A DNA stretch of 64,000 nucleotides from Aegotheles albertisi (lineage: Eukaryota): the NCBI GenBank assembly GCA_039906565.1, contig CM078459.1, forward strand, positions 18,787,066 through 18,851,065, given 5' to 3'. The stretch's first letter is position 1. Each line of letters opens with the position of its first letter. The translations under genes and the position numbers were made by a program. Positions 4,660 to 64,000 of the stretch are shown piece after piece. The notes under the pieces are model-generated. The model was not told the DNA's origin and did not search any database. It saw only the letters and a program-made list of their open reading frames with translations.

Positions 4660-5135
4660 GTCAGTGGGAAGACTTCAGAAGGGCAACAGAGCTGGGGAAG
4701 GGACTGGAAAATATGTCTTATGGGGAACGACTGAGGGAGCTGGGGGTGTTCAGTCTGGAGTAGAGGAGGCTCGGGGGACCTCGTCGCTCTCTACAGCTCC
4801 CTGAAAGGAGGTTGGAGTGAGGTGGGGGTTGGTCTCTTCTGCCGTGCCCATAGTGAAAGGACAAGAGGGAATGGCTTTAAATTGCAGCAGGGGAGATTCA
4901 GATTGGACATGAGGAGCATTTTTTTCACTGTAAGAGTGATTAGATATTGGAATAAGTTGCCCAGGGAGGTGGTGGAGTCACCATCCCTGGAGTCGTTCAA
5001 GAGGCATCCGGGTGTGGTGCTGGGTGATATGGGTTAGTGGTGATGTAGGTAGGGGTTGGACTGCATAATCTTGAAGGTCTCTTCCAACCTCAATGATTCT
5101 GTGATTCTATGATTTTATGATTCTAAGACACAGCA
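4660..5135 (+). mobile_element. CR1 LINE 3' fragment (ORF2 C-terminus plus 3' UTR with an ATTCTRTG microsatellite tail)
   Basis: ORF 4822..5037 encodes [46 protein letters not shown], the canonical CR1 ORF2 end. It terminates in atgattctgtgattctatgattttatgattct. Confidence 0.85.
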
Positions 5136-15109: not shown

Positions 15110-15188
15110 ATTTTACAGTGAAAATGATCAAGACACTCCTTTTTTCCCTGAAGATTTTGAAGTTGCAAAATACAGTGTCCTTGAAAAA
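15110..15188 (+). CDS. PARP4: PARP4 exon (R)FYSENDQDTPFFPEDFEVAKYSVLEK
   Basis: Matches human PQDFEVAKYNTLEKV. Acceptor tccatttcag. Donor GTAAGC. Confidence 0.85.
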
Positions 15189-15733
15189 GTAAGCCTTTCT
15201 GTTATTGTGAAAGAATGTAGGAGAATCAGTAGATGAATAAAAGGTTTGCAGTTTTATACACATCAACAATAAATCTTCTATGTTATCATGTCCTGCAGTG
15301 CAAACAGGATTGGAAAGTACTTTAATGCTTTCTGTCTTTCAGAGCAGCCTAATTCTACCCAAATAAAACTTTTCTATTATCGCTGTAGTGTTCTCATCAA
15401 AGTAATTGAGCAGAATAATATGTTTGCTTCTGACAAGATACATTTTATCATGGCTGTTATGTGTTAAATCTAATTTAAATTTTAAAATTTTATTAAAAAT
15501 CTTTCAAAACACAAAAATGATGAAAATCTACCACAACTAGAGAGGAGCTTCTGCTTGTTACTATGATACAAATAATGAATAATTCTGCTTCTAAGGCCAG
15601 ACATAGTGTGTGGTTCCAAATGAGGTGAAAAATAAGTAGGACAAGGGAAAGTACTTGGGGCAATATCGTGTGGATGAAACATACTTAAGCCCCCTGACAC
15701 CCAATTTATTGCTTTATTTATCTCTCCATGTAG

Positions 15734-15847: not shown

Positions 15848-16561
15848 GTATGAGCCACTCACTGACATTACCTGTTTTTTCTTTATACACATTGAACATA
15901 CCTGTTCAGAGAGCTTCAGATGCTTTTCATTCTTACTTGCAGGCTAATCCTTAAATATAGTTAATAGGAAGTTATTCTTTTAAGCTTTGATTTATAGTTG
16001 GCTGTTCTACTCTCTGTGTGTGCTTACAACTTGCTCAGAAGAACTGTTTTGGGACTTGGCAGCAATACATCATAGTCCTGGCTGCACCTGCCTCATAATC
16101 ACATATATTGTCCTGGCAATATCTAGGCTGTTTACGTGCTGAAATACTATAGCAGGTGATATTCTGGACATACTATTGAGAGACTTTAGGGCAGCTTAAA
16201 TGTGTTTCTCAGCATCCAAGTTACGTGTGCACTCTGGTCTAGCACTTGGAGTCTGTGTAATTGTAACAAGTCAAAGGAGCTGTATCAGGGATGAATTTTG
16301 AATAGCTCAATTGATAGAATCAGTTATTCCAGCACACGTTTCAATGAACCTGTCTTGTCACTGTGGGGTTTGTTTATGGAGCCTTGTGCTTGTTCTTTGT
16401 GTCCCATGAACCCTCATGAAAGCACTGCCTTGCTGGAAGCCTGTTAAATCACAACCCAGAAGTTAAGTGTGGATTGTCAGCTTTAGAGCAGTGTCTAGTA
16501 AAAGTGATTCTTTAAGCCTCTATATAGTTTCTTTGACTAATTTTACTCTTTCAATTTACAG

Positions 16562-16708
16562 AATAACAAACAATTCATAACTAAGACTGCTGACGAAATA
16601 AGAGAAAAGTATGAGACTTTTATTGCAGACCTCAAGAGCCAGGATTTCCTGCTCAGAGAAACTTTTCCACCAGAAGCAGAATCTTTAGCTTCTACACAGT
16701 TGCAAAAG
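16562..16708 (+). CDS. PARP4: PARP4 exon NNKQFITKTADEIREKYETFIADLKSQDFLLRETFPPEAESLASTQLQK. The 3' end requires a GC donor (AAG|GCTTGT).
   Basis: Matches human QFAIKKTSEDASEYFENYIEELKKQGFLLREHFTPEATQLASEQLQA. The next exon starts in phase 0 with LLLEE. No in-phase GT donor exists before the in-frame stop, so a GC-AG intron is inferred. Confidence 0.65.
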
Positions 16709-27264: not shown

Positions 27265-27870
27265 GGCCTGTATCAGAAGTGGTGTGACCAGCAGGAAGGA
27301 GTAGGGAGGTAATCGTGCCCCTGTACTCGGCACTCGTGAGACCGCACCTTGAGTACTGCGTCCAGTTCTGGGCACGACAGGATGGGAAGGACATTGAGGT
27401 GCTGGAGTGAGTCCAGAGAAGGGCAACGAGGCTGGTGAGAGGTCTGGAAAACAAGCCTTATGGAGACCGGCTGAGGGAACTGGGGTTATTTAGCCTGGAG
27501 AAGAGGAGACTGAGAGGAGACCTTATTGCCCTCTACAACTACCTAAAAGGAGGTTGTAGTGAGGCTGGTGTTGGTCTCTTCTCCCAAATTGCTAATGACA
27601 GGGCAAGAGGAAATGGCCTCAAGTTACATCAGGGAAAGTTTAGGTTGGATATTAGGAAGAAGTTCTTTACTGAGAGGGTGGTTGGGCACTGGAATAGGCT
27701 GCCCAGGCAGGTGGTGGAGTCACCGCCCCTGGGGGTGTTCAAAAAACGGGTTGATGAGGCATTTGAGGCCATGGTCTAATGGTCTGATGATTAGGAATAT
27801 GATGGGATAAAGGTTGGACTTGATGACCCTGGAGGTCCCTTCCAACCATAATGATTCTATGATTCTATGA
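27265..27870 (+). mobile_element. CR1 LINE 3' fragment in PARP4 intron
   Basis: ORF 27435..27779 encodes [38 protein letters not shown]...[39 protein letters not shown]. It ends in atgattctatgattctatga. Confidence 0.9.
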
Positions 27871-43789: not shown

Positions 43790-45065
43790 AGTCGGGCAAA
43801 AATGCCAGGAGGCCTGGCATGAACATGGACAAACAAGGAACTTCTGGAAAAACTCAGACATAAAAAGGAAGTAAACTGACAGTGGAAGCAGGGACGAGTA
43901 ACTTGGAAGGAGTATAGCGACGCTAGCTGAGCATGCAGAGACATCGCTAGGAAAGCCAAAGTCCACATGGAGTTGAATCTGGCAAGGGATGCCAAAGACA
44001 ACACAGTGGGCTTCTCTTAAGTGTCTAAAGTGGCAAAAGGAAGACTAGGGAAAATGTAGACCTGCTGCTGAATGGGGCAGGGGAACTGGTGACGCAGGAC
44101 ATGGAAAAGGCTGAGGTACTGAACACCTTTATTGCTTCAGTCTTTGCTAGCAAGACCAACCTTTGAAAATTCAAGGCCCCAGAGAGCAAGGGGGAAGTTT
44201 AGAGGAAGATGTACTCTTGGTGGAAGAGGAACGGGTCAGGGAATCCTTAAGCAAACTGTGGACATACATAAGTCCATGTGCCTTAGTGGGATGCACCCAC
44301 AAGTGCTGAGGGAGCTGGCTGATGCTGTTGTGAGACAACTCTCAAAAATCTTTGAATGATCATGGCAATTGGGAGAATTGCCTGAAGACTGGAGGAAAGG
44401 AAGTGTCACTCCTATGTTCAGGAAAGGCAAGAAGGAGGACCCACAGAACTACAGGCCAGTCAGCCTCACCATGATCCCTGGGGAGGTGGTGGAGCAGCTA
44501 ATCCTGGAAACCATTTCCAGGCACATGAAGGAAACCATTTCCAGGCACATGAAGTCATGAGAAGTAGCCAACATGGATTCACCATGGGGAAGTCATACTG
44601 GACCAACCTGATAAACTTTGAAGATGAAATTAGTGATGTGGTAGATGCAGTGGATATTGCAGGGGAGAGCAGTGGATATTGTCTGCCTGGACTTCCGTAA
44701 GCCTTCTGACACTGTTTCCTATATGATGCTTATACAGAAGCTGATAAAATATGGGCTGGATAAGCAGACAGTGAGGTGGATTGAAAACTGGCTGCATTCA
44801 GCCAGGCCCAGGGGGTGGTGATCAGTGGCAGGAAGTCTAGTTGAACACCCGTGATTACTGATGTACCCCAGGGGCCAATAGTGGGGCCTGTCCTGTTAAA
44901 AATCTTCATTAGTGTTCTGGATGATGTGACAAAGTTGTACCCTCAGCAAGTTTGCTAATGACACAAAACTGGGAAGAGTGGGTGATAGACCAGAGGGTCA
45001 TGCTGCCATCAAGAAGTGCCTCAGTAGGCTGGAGAAATGGGCTGACAAGAACCTCATGACATTAA
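43790..45065 (+). mobile_element. CR1 LINE internal fragment (about 1.3 kb, ORF2 endonuclease/reverse-transcriptase region, frameshifted) in PARP4 intron
   Basis: ORFs 44132..44359 and 44369..44560 encode ...GMHPQVLRELADAVVRQLSKIFE and ELPEDWRKGSVTPMFRKGKKEDPQNYRPVSLTMIPGEVVEQLILE. Downstream frames read FTMGKSYWTNLINF...DFRKPSDTVSYMMLIQKLIKYGLDKQTVRWIENWL (RT motifs). Several frameshifts. An internal 24-bp duplication lies at 44505-44552. Confidence 0.85.
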
Positions 45066-46267
45066 AAAAGAACTTTTACAGCTTTTTACAGTGTCCAAAA
45101 AGTTATTTTGTATGGTATATTAATATAAATAAGAGTAGGCCTGAATGAAGAATTCGGTGGAGATGCTGAGTAAAACAAGGATACCTTTTCCTATTTTTAC
45201 TGTTTCTTGATGTCTACTTTATTATGAAAAGCAATACCAATAGCGTATGTACATTATAAAAAATAGATTTTTCTGGAAATATTGCTTTCATGAGTAATAA
45301 CTCTCAACATTTGTAATTAAAGATCAAAAGACAGACATGCATTCCTAAAAACATCTGATTAAAAAGCAATTATAAAATGCAATGATGTGAAGTTATTCAA
45401 AATTCCCAGGTCAAGGACTACTTTTTAAACCAAGATCACTCAACTGAGTCAATTTAAATATCTTTCTGTAATGCACCTCAGTATTCCATCTGGTACAAAA
45501 CAGAAGCAATATTCGGGGAAAAAATATGTTGCAGAGTAGCAAAGAAACACCTGTGTGATTTCATGAACTGGTTGTTTACAAAGGGTGTCAACAGATCATT
45601 GTCTCTCCTGATTTTTATGTGTCTGGTTTTGCAGTTCTTCAAAAGATTTGGTTTCCCCTTGTCAGTATGATGCCTCTCAGGAATCAGACTTCTAGAATGT
45701 TATGTTTTAATTATGTCTGTAAATATAATAGCTTTCATCTCATTTCTAGTCTAGGATGACTTTTTTTGGCCCAGTGGAACAGAAAATTGCAGACATTTTA
45801 AGGCAAAATCACCTACATAACACAACGCAGTACCATGCAATATACCCAAAGTATCCCATCCAGCTTGGCACTGTTATCATACTATGCAATTTGTCTTCCT
45901 AACATGATTCTGCAGAATGCAATGTGTTTTAGCACATCTATAATGCTGCTTATGTTTGACAAAAAGACCTGCCTAAGATTTGGAATTGATTTAAATTATG
46001 TGGATTTGAACAAATTATACATACAAATACATACTGTCCACCTTTAAATTTCATGTGAATCTAGTTAATGACAATACGTTGTCTCTCAAAATAGTAAAAA
46101 ATGTGAAGTTACATTTACTGGGTTTTGTATATACTTAGTATTTTTAATGTGCTGCATTATCTGCTTATTCCCCGTTTTCAACACATTTCAAACTCACAAA
46201 AAAAATGCACCGTCTCTATAATGCCAGAGAATTTTCCGGTTTGTAACTGTGATGTATTTTAATTTAG

Positions 46268-46414
46268 GATGCTAATGAAACTCCTTCTGCTGATGCTCCA
46301 AACATCTTGGAAATTATAGCTCAAGAAGATGTAGATTTTTTACCTTATATGGACTGGGATGGAAAGTCAACAGAATTTGGCTGTTTCTTTTCAGAAGAAA
46401 TTGCCTTTGCCCCG
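46268..46414 (+). CDS. PARP4: PARP4 exon DANETPSADAPNILEIIAQEDVDFLPYMDWDGKSTEFGCFFSEEIAFAP
   Basis: Matches human DENESPFPDIPKVSELIAKEDVDFLPYMSWQGEPQEA. Acceptor ttaatttag. Donor GTAACT. Confidence 0.85.
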
Positions 46415-47472
46415 GTAACTACATTTAATATATGTTCTTATTGCTAACATTTTTGGTATATTATCCCGTTGTGGTGCTGTATTGTATATGTAAACATGTA
46501 GCAATCATTCATGAAATCTGTTCAATTTTAAATTATTTTTAATATAATTAATCCCACACAAGTACTGTGTGGAATTCTACTATAAACACAAAAATTTCGA
46601 GGAACCTGTCCCAAAAATAAAGTACACTTAAAAATATCGTGAGTGCAGCAGAAGTTTTGAGAGACAATGTGATAATACAGACTTCTTTTCCCTCCCAGAA
46701 GAAACTAACACCTGTTAGAGCATTCTCTCATAAGAATATGCTAGTGTAGTAGGAGCCTTAAATTCTACTCCTAAGAAACTCAGGGGGAGAGGAGGGGAGT
46801 TTCAAGGAAAATCAAGGTATTTATCCGTAAAAAAGCAGAGAGGTACAGCCAAAGCAGCGAGACTACAGGGAATGAAGATAAGCATGACTGTAAGAAGAGG
46901 ACATATTGCTAGTATGCAATGGGACAATCTCTGGGATGATGAGGGAGCAATGAGAAAAACTTGAACTAGTAGAATTGGATGTTTGCTAGTTATGGTAGCT
47001 CTCTCTTGGCCTTGGAAACTACAAGAGATGCTTGCATCAGTTAGCCAGCAAGTATAATTCTGTCAGTCTGTAAAGTCTTAACAGATTAAAGCTTTACATC
47101 TCAAAATTGTGTAGGTGACTCAAGAAAATAATTTAATAGACAAATAATGATGTTGTGCATGACCATGATGTGCATTTAATACCACTCAGGAGCATCATCT
47201 CAGCCTGTAGTCTGTAATGTATTAAGATTGTGAGTTATTTAGAATGATAACTGGATGTGTGTTCTGTATCTAAGGTCAACTCATACAAAGCCATTTTCCT
47301 GATCCTTTGGCCCAAGAATTCCTAGGCAGAAGAGTACCAAACATATACATTAGCATGTGGTGATGGTATAGCCCAGGCTCACTAGCTTGAATGCAGCAGC
47401 TACTGGACCTCAGCTGGTACATGTGCCAGAATTGCAGCAGAAGCAGGATCCATACCTCACTTTGTGTAGATC

Positions 47473-47554
47473 TACAGGGTGTTTCAAAAAGATGGACCCA
47501 ATTTCAATGACAGGATGCTTTGAAATTGGGTCCATCTTTTTGAAACACCCTGTA
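47473..47554. mobile_element. Perfect palindrome (35-bp arms, 12-nt loop) flanked by TA/TA. Putative Tc1/mariner-type MITE (Galluhop-like).
   Basis: TA|CAGGGTGTTTCAAAAAGATGGACCCAATTTCAA-tgacaggatgct-TTGAAATTGGGTCCATCTTTTTGAAACACCCTG|TA. The arms are exact reverse complements. The TA flanks are consistent with a Tc1/mariner target-site duplication. Explains the mirrored ORFs 47387..47596(+) and 47410..47667(-). Confidence 0.5.
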
Positions 47555-47595
47555 TCTTCTCTGTATGTACCACTATTGTACAGCAGAACTTTATA

Positions 47596-47765
47596 GAATA
47601 TGCTGAGTTGGAAGGAACCCTCCAGGATCATTGAGTCCAACTCCTGTCCCTCTGCAGGACACCCCAAGAGTCACACCATGTGCCTGAGAGCATCATCCAA
47701 ACGCTTCTTGAACTCGGGCAGGCTTGGTGCTGTGACCACTGCCCTGGGGAGCCAAATTCCTTGGC
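47596..47765 (-). mobile_element. CR1 LINE 3' end fragment (minus orientation)
   Basis: tatagaatatgctgagttggaaggaaccctccaggatcattgagtccaa...gggcaggcttggtgctgtgaccactgccctgggg is the reverse complement of the CR1 3' terminus. Confidence 0.8.
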
Positions 47766-47839
47766 TTATAATCATTGTTATATTTATTAATCATTTGTAT
47801 CTTAATTATGTAAAATACGTCTCTGCTCATATTTTGTTA

Positions 47840-50040
47840 CAGTCAAACTTTTCTCTGAATTTGCCTGTGTAAGGTAGAACAGGGTAAGAAATTTCTACTT
47901 TAACTGACATATTACTTTAATTTTGAACATACGAGTGACAATATAATGATACTGCACACACTATAAGAAGAAATACTGTTTTGATTGAAAAGAGAAAAGT
48001 ATCTTACTAACTCTGGAATTACTTTGTTTACCTGTAATTTTACTGGACAGGCATGTTTCCAAGAAGTTAATTCAGCTTCTTTACTAAGTGAGGAAGTTGA
48101 ACCTGAAAGACTCCTATTTCAACCAGAAGTTGTTCCTGTTGGTGAAAAGAGCATCTCACCAAAAAACATTCTGCAGGGCTCTGGAAATGTTTCTGAACTT
48201 GGAAGTAGTACTTGCGGTTTCAAATCAAATTTCAGTTTTGATGGAAGTATCACAACAGAGAAATCATCTGGATCAAGGTCACCTTTACCATGTGCCCTTA
48301 ATCTACTGAAAGTCGCTGAACCCGTCTTGTCATTTGGTTTTGGAGAAATTCATCAGACTCTACAAGATTCACTTCAGACTCCTGGATTTAGAAGAACAGG
48401 TGTTTGTGGGGGTGTTCCTAAACCTGCTCCTCCTCCTCCTCCTGCCTCTTCTTTTCAAAAATCGGTGGGAGACATGAAACCAGCTTTTTATTCTTGTGTT
48501 CCTCCAATGGGTTCAGCATTGTTTGGTTCACCTATTCCCATATGCGCAAATTCTGGAGAGACTAATGTTGGAAAACAAGTTGTTGTTCTTTGTGCTAATA
48601 AAAAAGAAGCACCGCTACGGACAAAGTGTAAGAAAAAGGCAGTACGTAAGCATGATGATACGGCTCCTGAAGAAGGATCTACTGAGGAGTTTAAAGCTGT
48701 GGTGAGTCTTCCATCATTATATATATTTTATATATTTTTTATATATCTTTTATATATAGGATGCTGCACATCATGTTGAAATCCAACCTGAATTCAGCTA
48801 ATGAAAGCTTCCTTAAGCGTTTGCATTTCAATGTTCATGGATGTACAGCCAAAAAAAGAACATGGGAAGGCTGGTGATGAGGCCGCTTTCCAACTCAAGA
48901 AATTACTTCGTATCATCTAGTAATAGCTATATGGGTCAATCTTGCTGTTTTATGCCAACATGAAGGATTCAACAAAGTCTTCCAGTCAGTTCAGTAAATA
49001 CAAATGAAATTCCTGAGCTCCAAAATCAGTACCCATCTTCTATTCATGCATTGCCTAAAAAATGAGTAGAAGGAAAAAATATCTTTGGAGATAAACATTG
49101 TGTAAATTATTTTGTTTTCTTTGCTTTCAAACTGATTTTATAAAGAGAATGATGACATCAAAGTCATGCTATTTTTTGTTCCTTTCATGGGCAATCCATC
49201 ATGCTTAAGAAACAGTATAAAATCAGAGCCAACAAGTGGTGATAACATCTCAAGAGTCAAATTTTACTCTGTATTTGCCCAGTATAAGGTAAAATAGGGT
49301 AAGAAATGTTGGTTTCGAACAATACGTTTTTACTTTCATTTTGAACATACAAATGACAGTATAATGGTAATGTGCATAATACAAGAACACATACAGTTTT
49401 GATTTTCACATACAGTTTTTGATCTTTTTGAATCAAAGAGAAAAAATGTCTCCCTGACTCTGGAATTATTTCATCCCTTGTAGTTTTGCTGAACAGGAAC
49501 TTCCTCCAGCTGTAACTCATGCTTGTGCAAATGCTTTCCTAAGCGAGAGAGAATGAACCTTTTCATCCAGAAAAAGAGGTTTCTTTTTAAAAAGAGGAGT
49601 GTTTTTTAAAAACGTTTAAATGCAATTACTTTGTATTAGGATGTAGTAGCTGCATGGGTAATGGTGATAAGATTCTTAGTTAACATTATCCTCTCCAGGG
49701 TCAACCAGGGTGCCTTAGAACAACAGCTAAAAAAAGGAATCAACAGAGAATTGAGTTGCCTTCTGTAAACTGGAAAGAAATTTTTGCACTCCAAAATCAG
49801 GTACAGTACCCATAGTCTATTTTGTGCACTACTTAAAAATACAATATAGGTAGAAGGAAAAAAATTTTTTTTACTTTAATCCTGTCCTGAGAAAAAGTAA
49901 AATACATTTATAAAAATGTTTATAAACAGATTTTACAAGTGTATGATGACATCAGTCATTCTGTGTTTTATTGTTTTCACGGGCAATTCAGCAATGGATA
50001 AGTAAGGAACAGTATAAAATCAGGGCAAACCGGTACTAGT
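47840..50040. repeat. Diverged tandem duplication. Copy 1 (about 47840-49245) contains the 651-nt PARP4 exon. Copy 2 (about 49246-50040) is the same unit lacking the exon.
   Basis: Pre-exon blocks match (aggtagaacagggtaagaaatttctactttaactgacat...ttgaacatacgagtgacaatataatgatactgcacaca vs aggtaaaatagggtaagaaatgttggtttcgaacaat...ttgaacatacaaatgacagtataatggtaatgtgcata). Post-exon blocks match (ctccaaaatcagtacccatcttctattcatgcattgcctaaaaaatgagtagaaggaaaaaat vs ctccaaaatcaggtacagtacccatagtctattttgtgcactacttaaaaatacaatataggtagaaggaaaaaaat). Unit ends match (catgggcaatccatcatgcttaagaaacagtataaaatcagagccaac vs cacgggcaattcagcaatggataagtaaggaacagtataaaatcagggcaaac). Confidence 0.7.
48051..48701 (+). 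CDS. PARP4: PARP4 large exon (217 codons) encoding the poorly conserved Ser/Pro-rich region (ACFQEVNSASLLSEEVEPERLLFQPEVVPVGEKSISPKNILQGSGNVSELGSSTCGFKSNFSFDGSITTEKSSGSRSPLPCALNLLKVAEPVLSFGFGEIHQTLQDSLQTPGFRRTGVCGGVPKPAPPPPPASSFQKSVGDMKPAFYSCVPPMGSALFGSPIPICANSGETNVGKQVVVLCANKKEAPLRTKCKKKAVRKHDDTAPEEGSTEEFKAV)
   Basis: Open 651-nt frame bounded by acceptor ttttactggacag and donor GTG|GTGAGT. Phase 0/0 fits the neighbouring exons. Position and Pro-rich composition correspond to the human PARP4 low-complexity region. Residue-level homology is weak. Confidence 0.7.
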
Positions 50041-50482
50041 ACACCTCCAGAACCCTTTTTTACAGCCTCCATCAGTTTGCAGCTTGGGGGCTTCCTGAGT
50101 CAAATATAAAAACATATAGGGGAAGCTAAGTGGATGCAAATAATACATATTATGCAAGAAAATAAAAAGTATTTAGGTTTTAGAGGGTTAGACTGAGAGA
50201 TGTTGCAGCAGAAACTTCCCCTGGACAGTCAGACCAATTGCTAGGGAAACTGCATGGAACTGTACTGTCCAAGGATCCTGCAGATAGGAGTCAGAGCAGG
50301 TAATGTTTAGCTTTGTTGGTTTTGGTATGTCCCGTGTGGTGGGAAAATTCCGTGTTCTGCATAACCCATTGCCAGTTTGGTGAGCTTATCAACTTAAGGG
50401 GTAAGGTCATGATCAGCAGTCAGCTTGTGGGTCACACAGTCAATATTAAAGTAAGTAATAAACTGAGGGAGGTTTTCAAGAG

Positions 50483-50599
50483 TATTACATGATCCGAGGG
50501 AAGAAGCCACTGTGGAAGGCCCTCAGTGGAGACTGCACTCATAATTGGCAGAGATTGGCAGCTCAGCATGGTGGTATGTTGAATTCCCTTTGGCTGGGA
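50483..50599 (+). CDS. PARP4: PARP4 exon YYMIRGKKPLWKALSGDCTHNWQRLAAQHGGMLNSLWLG
   Basis: CTHNWQ and MLNSLWLG|DGSWNL align with human CTQHWQDAVPWTELLSLQTE|DGFWKL. Acceptor tttcaagag. Donor GGA|GTACAC. Phase 0/0. An additional small upstream exon equivalent to human FLQIKCDTKDDS could have been missed. Confidence 0.5.
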
Positions 50600-51794
50600 G
50601 TACACCCTGTGCACTAGATTCAGTAGGTCTTCCAGGTGCCCCAGCTTCATGTTCCTTTGTGCAGCAGAGTCCACTTAGTATTTGCATCCTCATGACTATT
50701 TCTTGCTAATTTTTTTAAGCATTGTTTCGTTCTGTGTGTAATTAACTTTATTTTACGTAAGGAGCTTGCATCTGAAAGTAGTAAAAGTATAACCAGCCTC
50801 AGCATTAAGAAGAGATGGATATTTTCCCTCTATTTTTGACAGGACACTTGTATCAAATTATTTCTAAACATTGAACCATTACCATATGCCACATGGATAC
50901 AGTGGGGATTAGAGTAGTAGACTTGTGATTGACTTTTGTGAGAATTAACTCCCAAGGAGTGCTTCAAGATATTTTGTTTTTCACAGAATTGCCAACTGTT
51001 GAACTTCAAAAAGGAAAGTTTCTCATGTTTTTTACACTAATTGAACTTAATATTCTACAGATTTAAATTTTTTACATAGTTTGGATAATTATTATCTAAA
51101 CATCTATTTAAAAGCATGTATTATCTACAGTTACAGTTTTCTAAGACATAAAGCTGCAAGGACAAGTAGAGGTTCAAAAGTATTTAATATTGAAGAATAA
51201 GCACTTGAACATCCTGTTGAAAGCCTGTCTTCTATCTGACCTGAGGGTAGCAAACTATTTAGCAGATAATTTTAATCATGAGAGTTGTCTAAGTTTTGGC
51301 AGGGAAAGCCAGATAAAATAGGATTGGTTTTGTTAATACTGCATTTAACAATATATATATTAAACTTTGCCTTCACAGCAGAGGAGAGGGATCCTATATT
51401 GTTTCTTTTGAGTAAGAGGAATGCTTATTTTTTTAGCACCTTTAAAAATAATTTTCAGAAGGATTTTGTTTGAAATGAATTTGAAAACGCTAGTGTTTTC
51501 ATTGTGCATACTTTATATGGGAGTGATTTTGAAATTAATTTGTTTAAGGGTTTTTTACAGGGTAGGCTAACTACAGCGTTCCAGGTCAATTACAGACACT
51601 TGATGGTATGTCAAAGATTTGTGAAGTTTAGCATTTGAATCACCTAAATTGATTATGTGGATTACAGTTTTTGTGTTTGTGTAAGCTTTAAAAAAAATAT
51701 TTAAAGGAATTCTCCTGTGTCTGTTTTGTTCTTGCCAAATACATTTTCAGTGTCCTGGATCTTTGGCTTATCCATATATTTGTTTATTCCATAG

Positions 51795-51897
51795 GATGGC
51801 TCTTGGAATCTCGGTCCGCAGTTGGGTAAAATCTTGAAATTTGATGTTGATCATTTAATTAACGATTGCCTTATTAAAAAAGGCATTCAGTCACTTG
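51795..51897 (+). CDS. PARP4: PARP4 exon DGSWNLGPQLGKILKFDVDHLINDCLIKKGIQSL(G)
   Basis: Matches human EDGFWKLTPELGLILNLNTNGLHSFLKQKGIQSLG (MVP-interaction region). Donor G|GTAAAT. Confidence 0.88.
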
Positions 51898-52771
51898 GTA
51901 AATACCTTTCTGACATTAAAAACAATACATTGTGTTTTATTTCCTATGTGTATGTGTTATTACTCTGTATGTATACTGGAACTCTCAATAACTTATGCTC
52001 AGAATTTAAATGGATCTCTTAACTTAAAGGTTTCAAAAGTGCCTAATTTTAAGAATACAGTTTCTTCCCAACTTCTCTCACAATAGAGTGTCCTGATTGC
52101 CAAGCACATTTCCTGGAGAAATGTGTGCAGGATGTGAGATAGTTGGAATAGCAATAGGGGTTCTTTTATCTCAGTTACTGTATCTGGTATATTAATATCT
52201 ACTAAGGAAAAACAGGGAAGAAAAGTCTCTCTTAGGAGAGAGGCAGAAATCACTTCTGCTTTTCACATTTCAAATAATATGAATAATATTGATATCATTC
52301 TTACACACATGTGTGCTGTCTGCAGCATTCAGTAGCACTCTGCCTACAGACACTTTGCTGTTTGATTCTGTCAGTTGGTGCTCTTTGCTGGCAGCAGACC
52401 AGAAAACTTGGGGGCGGGAAAGGCAATTCCTTCTTTCTAAATTATTAGAGGGTGCAATGCTTCACGAAAGAACAAAAATCTTACAAGTTTCCCGTAATTG
52501 TATGTATTAAAATCAAAGTAGATTAGAACCCAAGCAAACACAAGCTGCAGAGATCCCAACAAAGCATTACCAAGTTTAAGTTTGAAATCCAGGAGCATGT
52601 TTGTCAAATCACTAATGTGAATACTCTTGATAGTAGTGATTGTATGGTGAGAGAATTCATTAGGGCAATTGATGTTTTAAAGTGATATGGAGTGCTTTGC
52701 AGAAAGTAACCTTTTCTGTTGTCAAGGAATCATTTAAATAGTAATACTGCTTCCCTTTTCTTCTTCCCTAG

Positions 52772-54629: not shown

Positions 54630-56959
54630 GGGTCTTACAGTCTTGATTTGACATATATGTACTATTTTACTTACCTGTAACTGCTAAGAATACCTTAATA
54701 TTTCTTTTTTTACAGTAATCATTTTGGTTGATTGCACATTATAAAAGCACTTTTATAATATCTTCGTTTTGATTTCTCCTAAAATCTTATGTACTTCTTC
54801 AATGGCATGGTAAAGCAAGCATAGTGTAGTAATTCAGTTAAGCATGGCAGATGTTTTGACAGATACAAGAATATCATAAACAAAGAACTAATAAATATCT
54901 TCATAAAATATCAGTGTTTGCAATTGGATTGTTTTTTAATTCCTACAGTGTGCCTTGAAATGCAAACAGCAGAACAGTTATTTTTCCTCCTGCACTGCTT
55001 TTCTTATCGGTCACAGTCCGTTTGTGAGTATATAGGTCAGGAAGAAGTTCTCTCTCTTTTTTTTGTTGCTGTTACTCTGTATCCTGATTTTATTCTATTT
55101 TATATATATTTTATACTGGACCAGACACTGGAACCTAATAACTAAACCAGACTAAAGGGGATTTATTTTCATTTAATGGGCTTTTCACAGGTGTTTAAGT
55201 GAACACATTACCTCTTCTAAACTAAGGAGCTGCGCAGAATCACACCTTGGTACTTAGTGATCTGAGGAAATGTGGTTACGAGACACAGTACAATTACACC
55301 AAGGCGGGATCCAGTGTGCACAGAACACACCATGCAGTTGTTTGTCCAGCCATTGAAAATACTCTGGAGCAGAAGTTCCACAGCCAGCTTAGCCGGTGTG
55401 TTCCACTGCCCTTGCAAACAGAGACTGCTCCCCAGCAGCAGCAGGGAAGTGTTGTAAGAGGTTACTAAGGAAAATTCTGGAATGTCTCTCATAGATGAGT
55501 ATTTGAGCAAACATCTGCTGAGGATGGAGTAGATACACGTGATCTTGTAGAGGAGGTTGCCAAGAAGGGGTATCCTGAGGTCCTTCTGTTTCTAAGGGTC
55601 CTTGTTTTCATGTGTATAACAATACCAGCTCTTTTTAGTAGCAAGTACAAAGGAAATACTTGTACTGCACTTCCTATTTGAGAAGAGCTTGGGTATGGGT
55701 TTCTTAAGAACTAGACTCCTTACTGTAGACAACGCTAAGCCAGCTTCTAAATCTGCTGTGAAGTCTTTGTATACTCAAGGGCTGTGTTACCAGCATTACC
55801 TTGGAAAGGAACCGATTGAATTTATACTTTTCTCTCACTGCAGTTAATTTTCCTATGAACTATGGAGCTGTATGAGGCAGTTGGGTGTTCTCACTGTCGC
55901 ACACAGCACACTGGAGCCGGGGTCTCGCCTCAGGGATGAGAAACCACTTGTGAGATGGGGCCTTTGCTAGGGCCAGTGCCAGGGGTTGTTCAGCAGGCAC
56001 AGGGGCTGGGGTGGCTTGTTACAGGTTTGTCTCTTTTCCTCCGGATTGTTACATGGAGAGGCTGTGCTTGCCTGCAGGTGGGCATTTTAACGCGTAATTC
56101 CATGAAATGTGAAAGGATTCCTGTTCCCAGTGAGAGACCTCGCCCTGGGGCACCCCTGCCCACCCTTCCTCCGTGTTCCCCTTGCCCTGCTGAGGGCACA
56201 CATGTTATAAATGACTTTGAGGCATATAGCAATTAATCAGGTTTATTAGGCAATAGCAGGCAAGCAAACAGCGCTGGGTGTGCAGGGAGTCACCGCTCCA
56301 CCAATACACACACCTTCATCAACACTCCACTCGCTGTATGTGTGGTTACATGTTACATATTCAGTGCATTACCTAACACACCTATACATATTCATGACCT
56401 ATCCCCGCTTCGTATTATAGTGAGTTTAAAAGTCATTTTCATGTTATTACACCTGCGCAGTGCTTCCTGGTGGTCGTGGGCAGGGGTCTCCAGGGATGAA
56501 GTAAGGGTCTTCCTCAGTCTTGCACTTTTCACCCCTTTGTGCTGAGCATGCTCACTAGTTTCTTAGCCACAGTCCAGTCACAAGGCTGGTTCCCACTGGT
56601 TTGGGACCCAAGGTGTAGGCACAATGTTACGGTTACTCCCTTTATCAGTGGTTGTGTCCTTGCCTCCCTTTTATCCATAGTGCTGTATCCTCCCTTTTTG
56701 CCTTGACAAGCATAATAAATTTCAAGCGAGCAGTATGCATTGATTAGCGAGCAGCTCTTCACAGATCATTCTTTAACCCATTCCTTAACTCCTAATTCCC
56801 TTACATCAAGTTCAGTGTGCCGTGTCGGTTTCTGTAACCGCAGCACATCTGTGTCTGGCTCGGTTTTCATCCCGTTTGCTCGTAATTCTCCTCTTGCCGG
56901 CCTCAGGTCTTTCCCACAGTTACAGGCTTGGTCCAACTGCCGATTTAATTGACACGAAT

Positions 56960-57499
56960 CATTCTTTAGCCCGTAACACACGTGCTGTGCTCGGACCGGG
57001 GGGTTCGGCACACGCCCGCTTTTACCGTGGACCAGCCCGGCCCGCCCGGGCACGGCACCAGCGGCGGGAACGCGCCCCCGGGGCTCAGCCACCGCCTCCC
57101 GAAGGGCCGCCGCGCCAGGGGCCGGCCCCAGGAAGAGCCCCCGGGGCACCGTGCGGGCGCGCAGCTCCGGCGGTCACCCGGCGCTCGCCTCTCGCCGACA
57201 GGACCGGGGCCGTGCAGCGCAGCACCCGCCTCTGCGGCGGGCACCGGGCTGGAGGGGAGCGCAGCCCGGCCGGAGTGAGCGGGGCCGCGCACAAGGCGGG
57301 CCCGGCGGGAGCGCGCGGGAGCCTCCTGCTGCCGCCCCCGCCACGCGGAACTCGCGAAGTCTCCGGGCGCGGGGCCCCGCCCCCGTGCGTCACGGGCTGG
57401 CGGGGCGGCGATTGGCTGCGGCGCCGCCTCGCTCCCCCCGCGCGCGGCGGTGGATGTCGCAGCCGCTTTTCCCCGTTGTCGTTTGAAACTCGGCCCAAA
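56960..57499 (+). promoter_or_regulatory. MPHOSPH8: MPHOSPH8 CpG-island promoter / 5' UTR. GC box at 57371-57385, CGTCA (CRE-like) at 57388-57393, inverted CCAAT box GATTGGCT at 57410-57417.
   Basis: Very CpG-dense sequence ends at a Kozak-context ATG (AAAATGG) at 57500. The CCAAT, Sp1-like and CRE-like elements sit 85-130 bp upstream of the ATG. The island continues through exon 1 into intron 1 (to about 58100). Confidence 0.6.
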
Positions 57500-57736
57500 A
57501 TGGCGGCGGCGGGGAGCGGGGCTGAGGCGGCGGCGGCCAAGCTGGAGGGGGCGGAGGAAGAGGAGGGGACGGCGGCCGCGGCGGAGGAGGACGAGGAAGA
57601 GGACGGGGAGGCTGGCGGCGGTAGGGCGGGCAAAGCGGCGGGCAAGGCGGCTGCAGCCGGCGGGGAGAGCGAGGAGGAGGAGGAGCAGGAGGACGTGTTC
57701 GAGGTGGAGAAGATCCTGGACGTGAAGACCGAGGGG
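57500..57736 (+). CDS. MPHOSPH8: MPHOSPH8 coding exon 1 (MAAAGSGAEAAAAKLEGAEEEEGTAAAAEEDEEEDGEAGGGRAGKAAGKAAAAGGESEEEEEQEDVFEVEKILDVKTEG)
   Basis: EDVFEVEKILDVKTEG matches human MPP8 EDVFEVEKILDMKTEG immediately preceding the chromodomain. Donor GGG|GTAAGC at 57737. Confidence 0.85.
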
Positions 57737-57869
57737 GTAAGCGCCCGGCCGCCCTGGCCGCCTCCTGAGCGGGGCCGGCGGCTGCCCCGGGTCGGGTTTC
57801 GCCTCCTCCCGGAGGAGGTGCGGGTCGGAGCGGTCGCCATGCGCCGGCACGGGGCGGGCCGGAGTGCGC

Positions 57870-57900
57870 CCCCCTCCCTCCCTCCCTCCCTCCCTCCCTC
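57870..57900. repeat. (CCCT)n microsatellite, about 7.5 units
   Basis: cccctccctccctccctccctccctccctc sits in MPHOSPH8 intron 1, about 130 bp downstream of the exon 1 donor, inside the CpG island. Confidence 0.9.
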
Positions 57901-60900
57901 GCCGGGCGCCCCGCGGGCAGGGCCGCGCTCGGGCGGGTTTCCCTGGGCAGGAGCTTCGGGAGCTGGTGCCGAGCTCAGCGGGACCGGGCTGAGCGCCCTG
58001 CGGAGCCTGTGAGGGTCTCCCAAAATGAGGGAGGCTCCTTCCGATTGAAATAACCAGCTGCAGCCACCTCTGTCCAGGCACAACCACCGCCTCTCGGCTG
58101 GCTCTGGAAGCAGCCCCGGCTGGTGGGACTTCTAAAATGTTCTGAACCTCAAATACCAAAAATCATCAATACCAGTGTGGGTTTTTAAGATGATTCTGTG
58201 TCTTACAGTTGTTTATTTAAACTAATTTTAACTAATTTATGGGATTTATTTTAGGCTTCAGTCAGGTGTGTGACAGTATAGAATTCTGCCTGTTCAGTGT
58301 AAAACATCAGGGTTTGGAGAGCCTTCAGATTAAGAATTTCTTACATATTTGTGATATCATGCTTAAGTTGAAATATCTTGATGACTTAAGAATGTTGTGG
58401 AGGGGGGTCAATACCGTTCCACACACACAGAGTATCAGCATACACTGAGCACAGTATTTTAAAAATGTCATTAGCATGTGCTGGTGGAAAGGTGTCTTGT
58501 GCCTCCTCTTTCTATTACCACCCTCTTCCTTCAAGCAGCCCGTTCTGCAGCAGGTTCTGTGCTGTGTGCTGGGTCAGTAAATAGCTTTGCTGTATGCGTG
58601 TGCCTTTCCCAGTGTGTGCTGGTTTGACATGCACTCCAGTTGCACCAGGTCACCTTTCCCTTGCTCTCAGGTGAGGGCCACGTTCCTGTGCTTCAGAAAT
58701 ACAGGGCAAGATACTCACACCTAGGCCTGACTTCCAGAATGGCTGAAGAAAGCTGTGTGTTACATTCAGTGGAGTTTATTTTACATGGTCTGCTTTAGAC
58801 TCACAGTCTCCAGCTTGCAGATTCCCAAATCTCATACAAAGTCCCCGAAGGTACACTGGGTCAGCCACTGTCCGGCACTGCTAAGGCCAGTCCATGCGTC
58901 CCTGTGTCCCAGCTGCAGGGGCAGGGGAGCTGGGGAGCACCACACAGAGAAGCTCTTGCCATTTGCAGTCCTGATGTTGCTGGAGCTGGTAGTGGTAGCA
59001 TGAGAGAGACAGCACTGTGGGGGTGGGATGAGGCTGGAGAGTTAGACCTGCTAACAAATGAAACATTTAACATGTCCTGCTTGAGAGGACAAGCAATAAA
59101 AGTTTGGAAATGTCTCCTCTCAGTATATCTAGGAAGCTTTTCATACTGCACTGAATTTCTTCTGCAACAACAGGCTCCAGCCCAAATTGTGACATTGCCC
59201 AGTGGAGATGGGAAACCTTAACTCCGCTGTTTAATGATGTGGTGATGCCCCTTTCCATAGGAGTTGTTTCTAGCCCATGATGAGTTCTCAGAGAAGTATA
59301 AAAATGCTTGGAAGTGTTCTATTATTCGTAAGTGATACAGAAATAAAAAATAACAATGTTGAATAAAATAATGCTGATAGGTGAGCGTAGGGCTGTGTGT
59401 GTATCTTCAGTATGATGATCAATCCCCTGCCTTCACTTAAGCTTCATTTTTGTATCACTCTCTGTGTACTGGGTATAGAATTGTTCAACAGCTGAATATT
59501 CTTACATTTGCACTAGGCTCTATTTTATCCAGCTTTCTCAGTTAATTAAAAAAGGACTTGTAACTTGTTTTGTACCAGTGTTACAAGGGTGTAGCAGTAA
59601 CTGTGCAGCTGGGTGAAGTCCCAGATCTGAAATGGCATAGCCCGGTACCACCGGGGAAGGTGAGAGGCGGGCTGTAGGAACCAGCCATGTGGGAAGGCAG
59701 CTGGGAGTCCCCACAGAGAAGTAAGCTGAACGTGAGTCAGCAGTTCTTGCAGCAAAGAATGCCAACAGCATCCAGCAGTGTAGCCAGCAGAGGTGAGCAG
59801 ATGCTTCTTGCTCGCTTCCAAGCACTGCCGAGATGCATGTGGAGTACGGCGTGAGGTTGTGAGTTCCCCAGGGCGGGAGAGGTATGGACATGCTGGAGTG
59901 AAGGGTTATGAAGGGTTCGGGGAGCTGGAGCATGGGAGGCTGGCCGAGCTAGGTCTGCTCTGCCAAAAGAAGGGAATAATCAGGGATGGTCATAGTGGTA
60001 TCTCATTTGCTTAATGAAAGGGTGTAAAGAGGACAGGGTCAGATCCTTTTCAGAGATGGACAGTGGGAGAATGAGAGAGGCAGTGGGCACAAGCTGGGAC
60101 GCAGGGAAATCTGTATAGATAGAACCTGACTGGGCAGGTTTCTGAGCAGCCTGATCCAGCTGGTCCTGTTTTGAGCAGGGCATTTTACTTTCTAGTTCTG
60201 GAGACCCCTTATAACCTACATTGTTCTGTGACTGTAGTAAGAAGGTCACTAGTCCCTTATTTTGTGAATAACCCCTTAGAAGGAAGAGAGAGAGAGAGGT
60301 CTTTGAAAACTGAATCAAGTTCCTGAATCAAGTTCCTGAATCAAGAGCATATGGTTAAGCTAAACCATAAGAGACATTACACTGGTGTATCTGAATACAG
60401 GCTATCTGTTTATGTGTCTGTGAAGCAGAACACAGAAGGTTGTAAACAAAGTTGGTTACTAAAGTTTAATGGCATATATATGCAGACCTTGGTAAAAGGT
60501 TAATGGTGCTCAGGCAAAACCTTAAATTTATGGATATCAGTACATTTAATAGTAAGTGTCAAATGGCAGTTCTTTGGAAGCTTTCCTTCTCCCGACTTGG
60601 TTAGCAGTGTAGGATCATTGCGAGTGTTACCAATCTCTTTGTGAAAGAAAGAGATACTATCATTTTGCCTCTCCAAAGGTGCTTTCCTTAGTACATTCAC
60701 TAATGTTTTTTTATTTAGGAAGTAAGTTCAGGAATGGCTATGTTGCCATTATTAGCTTTTTTTATATGGAATATGGATTTTCTTAAATTTGGTGCCAGCT
60801 TTTGTCATACATCTGCTTAAAGAGACTGCAGGTTTAATCGCTAAAGGTGACCACATTGATTCCACAGGACACGTCTCTGCTTGGTGCAGGAGGCCCTGAG

Positions 60901-61845
60901 TTTGCCACTTGTCTGGCTATATCAGCAACATGATGAGTCCAAACTAATAACCTGCCCTCAGCAGGAAAAGGCGTACGTCTTGGGACACCTAAGGATTAAG
61001 ACTACTTAAAGTATTAATAATTTGATGGAAATAATTTGTGGACAATACAATAATTTGGTGGAAAGCTTTCGGGTTTTTGTTTGGTTTTTTTAGTGGTAAA
61101 AGACTTCCTAATCTAGTGAAAAAACAAGATAGAGACTAAAAGGTGCAATTTCATCCTACGGTAAAGTTAAATACTCTTGAAACAATTTGTTTAGGGCTTT
61201 TGTATGTAAACTTTTACCAAAATCTTTGTAACTAACTCCACTGAGATGCACGTGCTCAGACTTTGTCTAGGTTTAGCTTGATCTCACTGGTGGTTTATTT
61301 TGTTGTTTTCTGATTGTTGGTATTTCAGTTTATCAAAGGTGGCACTAATTACAAATCTAACAGAAGTTGTCAATTCCAATATAAAACTGGGTGGATGGTG
61401 CTAATGCATTATAAATCTGAAGCGTTTACACCAACTTCTTCAGCACAGAGAAGCAATTCAAGCTTGAAATTTTTATAGAAGAAATATTAAAACATTAAAA
61501 ATAGTTTCATAACTGTCAGAAAATCCATTTCAGTAAAATGACTGGGAATTTATGATCTGTACATTATAGCTGTGGTTCTGAACAAATTTTACATATTACA
61601 AATATTTTGGCTAAAACCACTTCAACTATGGAAATGTTTTACGGTCTACTTAGTATGGAAATAATTCTGGGAATTCTTATGGAAATAATTCTGGGAATTC
61701 TTATGTCAATATTGGGCTGAACTCCCATTATATTATATTAATTTCTGTATACACAAAATGATGTATCTGCCAAGATCCCCAAGAACTGAGCTGGTGATAC
61801 AGTACTGTGCTGTGTTGTATTAAATGCTGGGCTTTTTTCTTACAG

Positions 61846-62001
61846 GGTAAAATTCTTTACAAAGTACGGTGGAAAGGATATACCTCAGATGATGATACCT
61901 GGGAACCAGAGGTTCACTTGGAAGACTGCAAAGAAGTGCTGCTTGAATTCAGAAAAAAAGTTGTGGACAATAAGCCTAAACCTGTCAAAAAAGACATACA
62001 G
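61846..62001 (+). CDS. MPHOSPH8: MPHOSPH8 exon 2, chromodomain (GKILYKVRWKGYTSDDDTWEPEVHLEDCKEVLLEFRKKVVDNKPKPVKKDIQ)
   Basis: Near-identical to human MPP8 GKVLYKVRWKGYTSDDDTWEPEIHLEDCKEVLLEFRKKIAENKAKAVRKDIQ. Acceptor ttttcttacag. Donor GTGTGT. Confidence 0.93.
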
Positions 62002-62883
62002 GTGTGTTTCACCTTCCAGTATCTTACACTGAAGACATATTCCCCATCCAGGCTCTGCTAATGGGAGAGGGAAGATGTTTGGGATATGGAATTAAGAAGG
62101 CTTAAAGAATCTCATCGATCTAAAAGTGGGGTTTTTTTCATTTGAAACTGAATATTGTTGCTACTCTCTGGTTAGGGAATTTTTTGTTAATTGACAAGTT
62201 TGCTTGTAGAATGTAAATTCATCTGAACTTAATTTCAGTTTTTTAATGAGACTATAAAAATTATGTATGGTCATTTATTTTGTTTATGACAACATAAACA
62301 ATGCCCTTTCCCTACCCACATGCATATTGTCTTGTCAGTGAGGCTGGGCACTACTCGATTCACCCTCCTGCTTTTTGTAGCAGATTTTTGCATGTTAATC
62401 ATTAAATTTGGTAAGATAAGAATACAGAAAAATTAACTGCAAGAAAGCAATGTATGACTTTTTTAACTGCTCAGTCAGTTTGAAAAAGAAGCATAAGAAT
62501 CTTTCTTGAAAACTAGTACCCTACTTACGGGAAATCTGTAGGTAAATTTTACAAAATCAGGTTAATTGTTTTTGATGTAAAATAGTTCAGATTTAGTTCT
62601 GATCTGGAATCTGGTTCTTGAGTGTCTTACTGGTTTACTTGTCTTCTTTGTGTGTTGATTCTCATCCAAGCAGTTAGTAATTTAATTTGGTAAGTGAGCT
62701 AGGGTTGTGTTTACAAATTTTACAATTTGACAATGAGGAATGATGTTTGCAGTGATTAAAAGATTAAAGTGTTTAAAAATTTACTTTTCCCAAGCACCAC
62801 CACTAGCATTTTTGTATAGTTTACACCAAAGTGATACACTTTAATGGGGAAATTAATCTTTCCTTTTTTTCCCTGCCTTTTAG

Positions 62884-63726
62884 AAGCTATCTCTAAACGA
62901 TGATGTATTTGAAGCAGAATCTGACAGTGACTGGCAAAGTGAAACAAAAGATGATGTTTCACCAAAGAAGAAAAAGAAAAAGTCAAAAGATGGAGAGGAT
63001 AGAAGTCCAGATGATCTGAAGAAGAAAAAGTCTAAGTCTGCAAAACTCAAAGAAAAATCCAGAACAGAATGTGAAAATTCTTCAGATACTTTGGTTTCGG
63101 ATTCAAAACCAAAAAAAAGGACTTCAGAAACCAAGGAGGATTCAAAGGACCCAAAGAAGCAAAGGAAAGAAGACACTAAAGACATCAAGAAAAAGAAGGG
63201 AGAAGTTAAAGATTCACAAACAAAATCTAAAGAAGACAAAAAGTCACGAAAGGAGAAGCAGGGGGATGTTCAGATTGACTCAGAATCAAGTACTTTAGAA
63301 GATATATTTTCTCAAGGACCTGATAATGAAAATTTAGACTTGAATTCTGAAAATAAAGATGAGAAGCAAAAGGTAATAAGTGGAGAAGAGAGATTGGAAC
63401 AAGAAATTGCTGAAAAAGATTCCATTGCTGATAGGCATCTTGATGGATCAGCAAGTAATGAAGATGACAGTATTGATGTTAAGGTTAAAAGAAAGAAGAA
63501 AAAAATTCAGAAAGCTGAAGGTTATAAAGAGGAAGGTAGAAAAGTAGAAACTCAAGATATCTATTTAGAGAAGCAAAGCATGTACAAAAAGCAAAAAGGT
63601 CAAGAAAAAGTAAAAATGGTACCAGGAGAATTGGAGAAAGTGTCACCTGCTCCTTCTCCAGTGCAGAAGGGTTTGAAGTTGAGCGCTGATGAAAGAGGAC
63701 GCAAGTCCACTGATTCAGCTGGGGAG
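62884..63726 (+). CDS. MPHOSPH8: MPHOSPH8 exon 3 (281 codons, Lys/Ser/Glu-rich): KLSLNDDVFEAESDSDWQSETKDDVSPKKKKKKSKDGEDRSPDDLKKKK...GLKLSADERGRKSTDSAGE
   Basis: Matches human MPP8 RLSLNNDVFEANSDSDQQSETKEDTSPKKKKKK...SPDDLKKKKAK... and ...PKGRRLSGEERGLWSTDSAEE. Acceptor cctgccttttag. Donor GAG|GTAAGC at 63727. The gene continues beyond the window. Confidence 0.88.
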
Positions 63727-64000
63727 GTAAGCAACGATAAGGCATTGGAATGGGGGTTAAGTCAAACATATTTGGGGTACAGATACATCAAAAGGCAACT
63801 GGTCATGATATCGAAGAGAAAAATACAAATTGAAAAGTTAATGAGCTAAAGAAAAGCCCACTGCACAGTGTATAGGAAAGATTGAAAAAAATCTGGATAC
63901 ACTATAAAGGAGGGAACACTTCAGGAGAGAAGAGTGTCTTTGAACATGAAAGTATGAATTTCTCCTGTATGTTAAGTGTACTTACTTAGAATGAAATTTA

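Follow-up and report, generated by a model that had tools for sequence, protein, structure and literature searches.

The 64,000-nucleotide stretch of Aegotheles albertisi DNA considered here (contig CM078459.1, positions 18,787,066 to 18,851,065 of the forward strand; in the following "the window", to which all coordinates refer) carries on its plus strand almost the whole PARP4 gene, and between the PARP4 exons at 46268-46414 and 51795-51899, in the region between the vWA part and the vault-binding INT domain at the C-terminus, lies a segment that is present in two diverged tandem copies. This segment very probably goes back to an old duplication within the gene of two PARP4 exons, a large one (A) and a small one (B), which was followed by complementary exon decay: the current exon order is A1 (functional), B1 (dead), A2 (dead) and B2 (functional). 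The arrangement is best read as a genomic fossil, which has left a roughly doubled intron between A1 and B2 and has no demonstrated present function. The parts of the duplicated segment and the two exons next to it are the following:

47841-49254, plus strand: copy 1 (1414 nt), with left arm, exon A1, intron, dead exon B1 and right arm; delimited by self-BLAST, boundary motifs and multi-species alignments
47841-48050, plus strand: left arm of copy 1, intron just 5' of exon A1 including the acceptor AG at 48049-48050; 77% identity to 49255-49497
48051-48701, plus strand: exon A1, the functional large exon (651 nt, 217 codons, phase 0-0); open frame between the acceptor AG and GTGAGT from 48702
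48702-49698, plus strand: predicted intron between A1 and B2 (997 nt), largely two exon relics and the duplication junction; from the splice sites and from the A1/B2 join in a Phaethon gene model
48934-49029, plus strand: B1-psi, dead copy-1 homologue of exon B; from alignment, translations and tblastn
49250-49260, plus strand: duplication junction, with the end of copy 1 (..CATCTCAAG) against the start of copy 2 (AGTCAAATTTT..); from located motifs
49255-50052, plus strand: copy 2 (798 nt), with left arm, relic of exon A, functional exon B2 and right arm; delimited by self-BLAST and multi-species alignments
49497-49616, plus strand: A2-psi, relic of the first approximately 120 nt of exon A; homologue of the acceptor AG intact at 49495-49496, TGA at 49554-49556
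49699-49800, plus strand: exon B2, the functional small exon (102 nt, 34 codons, phase 0-0); AG at 49697-49698, GT at 49801-49802
49801-50052, plus strand: right arm of copy 2, intron from the 3' end of exon B2 to the end of the unit; 76% identity to 49129-49233
46268-46414, plus strand: preceding PARP4 exon (DANETPSADAPNILEIIAQEDVDFLPYMDWDGKSTEFGCFFSEEIAFAP, phase 0-0), for context
51795-51899, plus strand: next PARP4 exon (DGSWNLGPQLGKILKFDVDHLINDCLIKKGIQSLG), in frame after B2, for context

When positions 47000-51000 were compared with themselves by BLAST, four collinear direct matches were obtained, namely 47841-47986 with 49255-49404 (77% identity, E = 4e-23), 47989-48051 with 49435-49497 (77%), 48990-49079 with 49761-49863 (69%) and 49129-49233 with 49924-50030 (76%, E = 7e-14). 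The two copies abut head to tail at 49254/49255, the motif AGTCAAA starting at 47841 and again at 49255, and their right ends correspond (49246-49254 versus 50043-50051). Alignment shows the same junction sequence in three further bird loci with this architecture, those of Phaethon lepturus (L002), of Morphnus guianensis (L004) and of a Logan contig from run SRR9860178 (L005). In 465 non-exonic columns the gap-free identity of the copies is 75% (p-distance 0.247, Kimura two-parameter distance (K2P) 0.31). The copies are thus adjacent, head to tail and collinear, with a similarity far beyond chance, as is characteristic of an intragenic tandem duplication. A tandem repeat with a unit of about 750 bp had already been claimed in a preliminary description of this DNA, together with the proposal of a self-alignment as a check; the repeat is confirmed, the unit size is a fair estimate of the 798 nt of copy 2, and the copies are neither a short simple repeat nor two insertions of an interspersed repeat. 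Simple repeats were considered separately and rejected, only small microsatellites (e.g., 48716-48758) being present in the region. An assembly artefact was also rejected, the copies differing by approximately 25% and the structure being conserved in four species.

Exon A1 codes for a fast-evolving linker, which in PARP4 separates the vWA region from the INT domain. It contains no Pfam domain, is open in frame between its splice sites, as had been stated before, and is collinear with the single exon A of loci in which the segment is not duplicated; its orthologue is included in the NCBI model of the Phaethon protein (P0107). The ratio of nonsynonymous to synonymous substitution rates (dN/dS) of exon A is approximately 0.8-1.5, and the frame is open, with in-frame insertions and deletions only, in four lineages (the window, L002, L005 and the locus L003 discussed below). 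Its length is similar with the duplication (217-231 codons) and without it (223 codons). This pattern would fit a spacer that is under selection for length and frame rather than for sequence. It should be noted that exon A alone gave no match in a word-indexed protein search; this was a false negative, because a longer C-terminal query later matched bird proteins that contain exon A (P0107 and P0111), and the negative outcome of such a search is unreliable for fast-evolving, low-complexity queries. Just past the donor of A1 there is a TA-rich microsatellite, (TTATATATATT)n, with approximately 3.8 copies at 48716-48758, which is the "AT-rich intron" of the preliminary description.

According to that description the second copy precisely lacks the large exon, its acceptor region running straight into the homologue of the post-exon sequence and into an early stop. 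The stop is there (TGA at 49554-49556), but copy 2 retains a stump of approximately 120 nt of the exon. In local alignments 49513-49616 of copy 2 matched 48068-48170 of the exon with a score of 25.5 (z = 6.3), which was reached by none of 500 shuffles, versus a score of 17 (z = 1.7, reached by 31 of 500 shuffles) for the post-exon alternative, 49505-49577 against 48782-48859. In the multi-species alignment the copy-2 reading, ELSLAVADVYANAFLSGRE followed by the stop, parallels ACSPAVGDVYSADFLSGKGE of exon A. Homology between the copies picks up again at approximately 48897 in copy 1 and 49620 in copy 2, the equivalent of approximately 48171-48896 being absent from copy 2, i.e., about 530 nt from the 3' part of the exon, the donor and about 195 nt of intron. 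Global self-alignments, whether with permissive or with strict gap costs, placed 49498-49620 of copy 2 unstably, and the placement was settled by the local alignments with shuffles and by the multi-species alignment.

The preliminary description also overlooked a real exon in copy 2. Exon B2 encodes GQPGCLRTTAKKRNQQRIELPSVNWKEIFALQNQ, with which the vault-binding INT domain begins at its N-terminus, and joins in frame to DGSWNL at 51795. Within it 49762-49800 reads SVNWKEIFALQNQ (sensitive tblastn), which matches the human sequence directly before DGFWKL, AVPWTELLSLQTE. Squamate PARP4 proteins match B2 in the same position: the Micrurus protein reads SVDWPQLFKLQNQ directly before DGFWQL and the Gekko protein AISWPQLSELQNQ directly before DGYWQL. 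Matches were likewise found in emu protein P0108 and in the Phaethon protein. In the NCBI model for Phaethon lepturus EEFKVV is followed by EPSRCFITTEKERIQQRIEWTSANWKEIFALQNQ (EPSRCF...LQNQ) and this by DGSWNL, exon A being spliced directly to exon B, and the B segment of the model aligns to 49711-49800 with 73% identity (tblastn). The assignment of exon B to the N-terminal start of INT is made because human INT comprises residues 1563-1724 of VPARP (PMC5665922). Exon B2 is intact in every locus examined.

The copy-1 homologue, B1-psi, has 96 nt versus the 102 nt of B2 and is disabled in the window in several ways: it is without the AG acceptor (a gap of approximately 40 nt) and without the GT donor (a 6-nt gap), it contains an in-frame TGA at 48961-48963, and a conserved Trp is replaced by Thr (SVNTNEIPELQNQ). 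Compared with the Phaethon protein by tblastn, B1-psi shows 50% identity with a stop versus 73% for B2. B1 has also changed faster: in a relative-rate test 20 changes in the window were unique to B1 versus 6 unique to B2 (p = 0.009), and in all such tests 20-25 were unique to B1 versus 4-6 to B2 (p < 0.01). Homology to functional exons and disabling lesions are found in both A2-psi and B1-psi and identify them as exon relics, the faster evolution of B1 than of B2 pointing in the same direction.

The two-copy architecture is the same in the tropicbird (L002), the crested eagle (L004) and L005, as seen from self-similarity and from collinear alignment to the window. The A2 stump, its TGA and the deletion breakpoint are identical in all four loci, and all copy-1 B sequences have a 6-nt deletion and the loss of the Trp in common. 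The further lesions of B1 are lineage-specific; in the window they affect the splice sites and include the stop, in L005 there is a 1-nt frameshift, and in L004 the acceptor region is deleted. The comparison with other birds, which had been recommended to see whether some species retain two coding copies, revealed no second coding copy of A, A2 being a relic in the four bird loci; B1 of Phaethon, however, is still open. In neighbour-joining analysis (K2P, 621 non-exonic columns) the copy-1 sequences and the copy-2 sequences each form a clade with 100% bootstrap support, orthologous copies thus grouping by copy and not by species, as is expected for an old event. The K2P distances between paralogues are 0.25-0.32 versus 0.11-0.16 between the window and the orthologues of the other birds, a ratio of about 2.2. 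From the clades and from the larger distances between paralogues it therefore follows that the duplication and the deletion in A2 predate the ancestor of the four birds; under a clock, the duplication would be about twice as old as their common ancestor.

Two loci with a single copy were found. Gekko kuhli (L007) has a single large open frame for exon A, at 14770-15729, and a single exon B, at 16484-16597, without any direct repeat; in L003 (contig AWGT02003719 of the Colinus virginianus assembly) exons A and B likewise occur once each, and self-similarity is absent. It follows that the duplication is the derived state. The blue jay (L001) and kagu (L006) loci are without this part of PARP4 altogether.

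The identity of L003 requires comment. The record is labelled UNVERIFIED_CONTAM, but the label is probably assembly-wide because a gecko protein on a 173-Mb chromosome carries it too. At third positions of coding sites the K2P distance of L003 is 0.16, versus 0.084 between the window and Phaethon and approximately 0.7 for the gecko, and the quartet is clearly resolved as (gecko, L003 | window, Phaethon). That L003 is a contaminant from a crocodilian or a turtle was considered and is largely rejected, the coding-site distances being at bird level. In introns L003 has K2P distances of 0.35-0.39 to all other birds (0.39 to the window), versus 0.10-0.15 among these (window to Phaethon 0.145). L003 lies on a long branch, has emu-like residues at several conserved positions (EIFDLQNQ, DVDYL, FKSLMKL) and reads YMSWEEEP, as do mammalian proteins. 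Should L003 be genuine bobwhite, the window would not come from a galliform and would form a near-polytomy with L002 and L005. Its left arm is nearer to copy 1 (11 of 14 diagnostic sites), and its right arm leans to copy 2, with the states interspersed 10:10. This site pattern is compatible both with a single copy that is ancestral and with a secondary collapse by recombination, an ambiguity that leaves the reading of the window itself unaffected.

The gene is predicted to splice A1 (48051-48701) directly to B2 (49699-49800), as deduced from the predicted Phaethon gene model and from protein homology. In L003, with its single copy, approximately 550 nt lie between exons A and B. The duplication would add no coding sequence to the present protein. 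The relics do not have the properties of alternative exon pairs either: A2-psi is a stump of approximately 120 nt with a TGA and without a donor, and B1-psi of the window has a TGA and lacks both AG and GT.

These observations can be combined into the following sequence of events, the order of which we infer. A segment from approximately 210 nt upstream of exon A to approximately 250 nt downstream of exon B would have been duplicated in tandem. Because exons A and B together have 753 nt, a transcript with all four exons would have encoded 251 additional residues in frame. One deletion would then have removed from the downstream A the 3' four-fifths, the donor and part of the following intron, and this A would have acquired the stop codon that is common to all four birds. 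The upstream B would have lost the conserved Trp and 6 nt, followed by decay that differed between lineages, which in the window would have led to the loss of acceptor and donor and to the gain of a stop. Several points weigh against this reconstruction. The in-frame four-exon intermediate is purely inferential. The use of A1 and B2 and the skipping of the relics are deduced from homology and from the prediction of a gene model, and in Phaethon B1 retains AG, GT and an open frame of 96 nt (32 codons), both splice sites thus being kept, so that in this bird B1 could be a used exon. Moreover, the single copy in L003 may be the result of a secondary recombinational collapse rather than ancestral, and with the species of L003 uncertain any absolute dating is loose.

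Other explanations have been weighed against the duplication of two exons with complementary decay. The preliminary description saw in the repeat an old duplication of an exon segment with subsequent decay of one copy of the large exon, which agrees with our findings, but it assumed a unit with a single exon, of which copy 2 had lost exactly this exon and about 70 nt of intron, its acceptor becoming fused to post-exon sequence. An intact acceptor homologue with an early stop behind it and the weak alignment of 49505-49577 with the sequence behind the exon are in line with this version. It is nevertheless very improbable: the alignment with the 5' part of the exon is far the better one in the shuffle tests and is plain in four species, and the unit held both A and B, exon B and its dead twin still being present. 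It is practically without likelihood that an interspersed repeat (transposable element) was inserted twice independently, on either side of the exon. Such elements are indeed nearby (a CR1-like fragment at 47592-47753, a palindromic element of 80 nt at 47473-47554), but the unit consists of native gene sequence with two exons of PARP4 and is found once at the same position in Gekko and L003; further copies of the arms are absent from the 64-kb window and from the rest of the bird loci L001-L006, the two copies abut exactly, and a repeat search found no inverted repeat at the ends of the unit. No Rfam family was found in 46000-52000.

It could also be argued that the relics are not inert, the acceptor of A2-psi or B1 serving as a regulated alternative or "poison" exon, either in unproductive splicing that tunes PARP4 levels or as an alternative N-terminus of the INT domain. 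The acceptor of A2-psi, a pyrimidine-rich tract with CAG/G, is kept in all four bird loci, and the intact splice sites and open 32 codons of Phaethon B1 may be interpreted in the same way. However, A2-psi has no donor homologue, only a poor GT (AGAG/GTTTCT) being found after it, B1 is broken in three ways in three lineages and evolves without constraint, and the Phaethon gene model skips both relics; we regard a present role of the relics as quite unlikely. The preliminary description offered as an alternative that the repeat marks a hotspot that shaped the low-complexity region of PARP4. For a recurrent structural instability shaping the variable linker one can cite that PARP4 of a coral snake (P0027) has its own nearly identical tandem repeat of approximately 65 residues in the region of the preceding exon, that L003 may be a secondary collapse, that large PARP4 deletions occur in several birds and that dN/dS of exon A is approximately 1. 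Direct support for the hotspot was not found. The present protein would have gained no residues from the bird duplication, exon A1 aligns collinearly with its single-copy counterpart, and the length of exon A is similar whether or not the segment is duplicated. The repeat of the snake may be an artefact of assembly or annotation, and the conservation of one old event across a bird radiation argues for stability since then. We therefore consider the hotspot unlikely, and with equal reserve we regard the wider scenario in which the linker/INT boundary of PARP4 is recurrently unstable in sauropsids, with independent duplications in birds and, further upstream, in the coral snake, a possible collapse in the bobwhite assembly, deletions in eagle, kagu and jay, and perhaps an alternative start of the vault-binding domain in tropicbird B1.

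The assignment of the gene to PARP4 is well founded. With a human PARP4 query of 1724 residues tblastn found the exons in collinear order from 9564 to 54436. The spliced peptides of the window gave Pfam matches to BRCT, PARP, VIT and VWA and matched the full-length human PARP4 chain 11jf_P with E = 0; BRCT, PARP catalytic, VIT and vWA domains and the C-terminal vault-binding region are all present and in this order. The spliced C-terminus gave no Pfam match, the local Pfam copy apparently being without the PARP4_MVP-ID model. PARP4 adjoins MPHOSPH8 in the window as in other bird loci: 56800-58050 and 61798-63846 contain a CpG-island-like GC-rich stretch followed by chromodomain exons (KILYKVRWKGYTSDDDTWEPEVHLEDC) and a lysine-rich region, which are the start of MPHOSPH8, in other bird loci the downstream gene with Chromo and Ank domains.

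In several birds PARP4 looks eroded while its neighbours CENPJ and MPHOSPH8 are intact. For example, the exons of the catalytic domain and many other PARP4 exons gave no tblastn match in the loci of the eagle (L004), the jay (L001) and the kagu (L006), and in the kagu the entire interval from CENPJ to MPHOSPH8 is only approximately 15 kb. The eroded PARP4 models are labelled LOW QUALITY by NCBI, and in L005 (9311-9499) the last PARP4 exon has an in-frame stop directly after RRVER and before FPSICY. This suggests that PARP4 may have been lost repeatedly in Neoaves; a report of PARP4 loss in birds was not found in the literature. In the coral-snake protein P0027 (Micrurus carvalhoi) residues ~225-355 contain the two nearly identical copies mentioned above (EADEDQSGDTLDHLEPVAIHDVDILPYIDYSTGEILENENMILHSCSMPAYYYED.IS.SDIPVQ), which correspond to the exon just upstream of exon A and are either an independent recent duplication or an assembly artefact.

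Two elements lie just upstream of copy 1. The 80-nt element at 47473-47554 is a perfect palindrome with arms of 35 nt, a loop of 12 nt and TA on both sides and looks like a miniature element of the Tc1/mariner type. Its insertion is lineage-specific because the orthologous site in L002 and L005 is without it. The CR1-like fragment at 47592-47753 is likewise missing from L002 and L005 at the orthologous position. Its match in the window, 27813-27860, is on the opposite strand and lies beside the remnant of a CR1 open reading frame at 27411-27776. Other remnants of CR1 reverse transcriptase are found at approximately 4735-5034 and at 44000-45150.

What makes the locus instructive is that it is a clean and datable case in which an in-frame duplication of more than one exon was neutralised by the loss of a different exon in each copy. 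The original mRNA was restored, and what remains is a longer intron that is built of exon relics. Known PARP4 function is not changed by this finding. For gene annotation it is of practical importance, however, that gene predictors can be misled by the relics, above all by the acceptor at 49495-49496, which is intact, and by B1, which in some birds is still splice-competent, and that a real exon of 102 nt is hidden inside an apparent "repeat".

The PARP4 duplication adds one more case to a class of events that is already known, in which a segment within a gene is duplicated in tandem and the exons of the two copies then decay in a complementary manner; a description of a duplication of these PARP4 exons was not found in the literature. 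Its closest relatives are tandem exon duplications with alternative homologous exons, as reportedly described by Kondrashov and Koonin in 2001 and by Letunic and co-workers in 2002. As in such cases, an exon-bearing segment is repeated head to tail with the same phase and with homology of the flanking introns. Tandem exon duplication can give rise to mutually exclusive or alternative homologous exons (PMC8373072); in PARP4, in contrast, the duplication took in two neighbouring exons at once, in the window each pair consists of one working exon and one relic, and the outcome was the restoration of the original exon set rather than new isoforms.

With the protein as described in the literature (PMC5665922; PMC12280208) the window agrees in that it encodes BRCT, PARP, VIT, vWA, a linker and a C-terminus homologous to INT, that exon A lies in the variable stretch between vWA and INT, and that human residues 1570-1582, with which exon B can be aligned, lie at the start of INT. 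Long disordered regions bridge the folded domains of PARP4, as seen by cryo-electron microscopy (PMC12280208). It differs in that the linker exon of birds is shorter than the human region in its place; a duplication of exons A and B is not described in these two papers.

There is also a likeness to the duplication-degeneration-complementation model, reportedly put forward by Force and colleagues in 1999, in which duplicated genes undergo reciprocal loss: decay is complementary, and both copies are needed for the full original function. The difference is that in PARP4 exons of one transcription unit are concerned rather than whole genes or regulatory modules, and that no subfunction was partitioned, the spliced product being the ancestral one. 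Finally, A2-psi and B1-psi resemble intronic pseudoexons in that they look like exons and have partial splice signals, yet are presumably passed over by the spliceosome. Most of the pseudoexons described have arisen by chance or from repeats and were noticed once mutations activated them (PMC8819188), whereas A2-psi and B1-psi are true relics of formerly functional exons, whose orthologues can be traced in birds.

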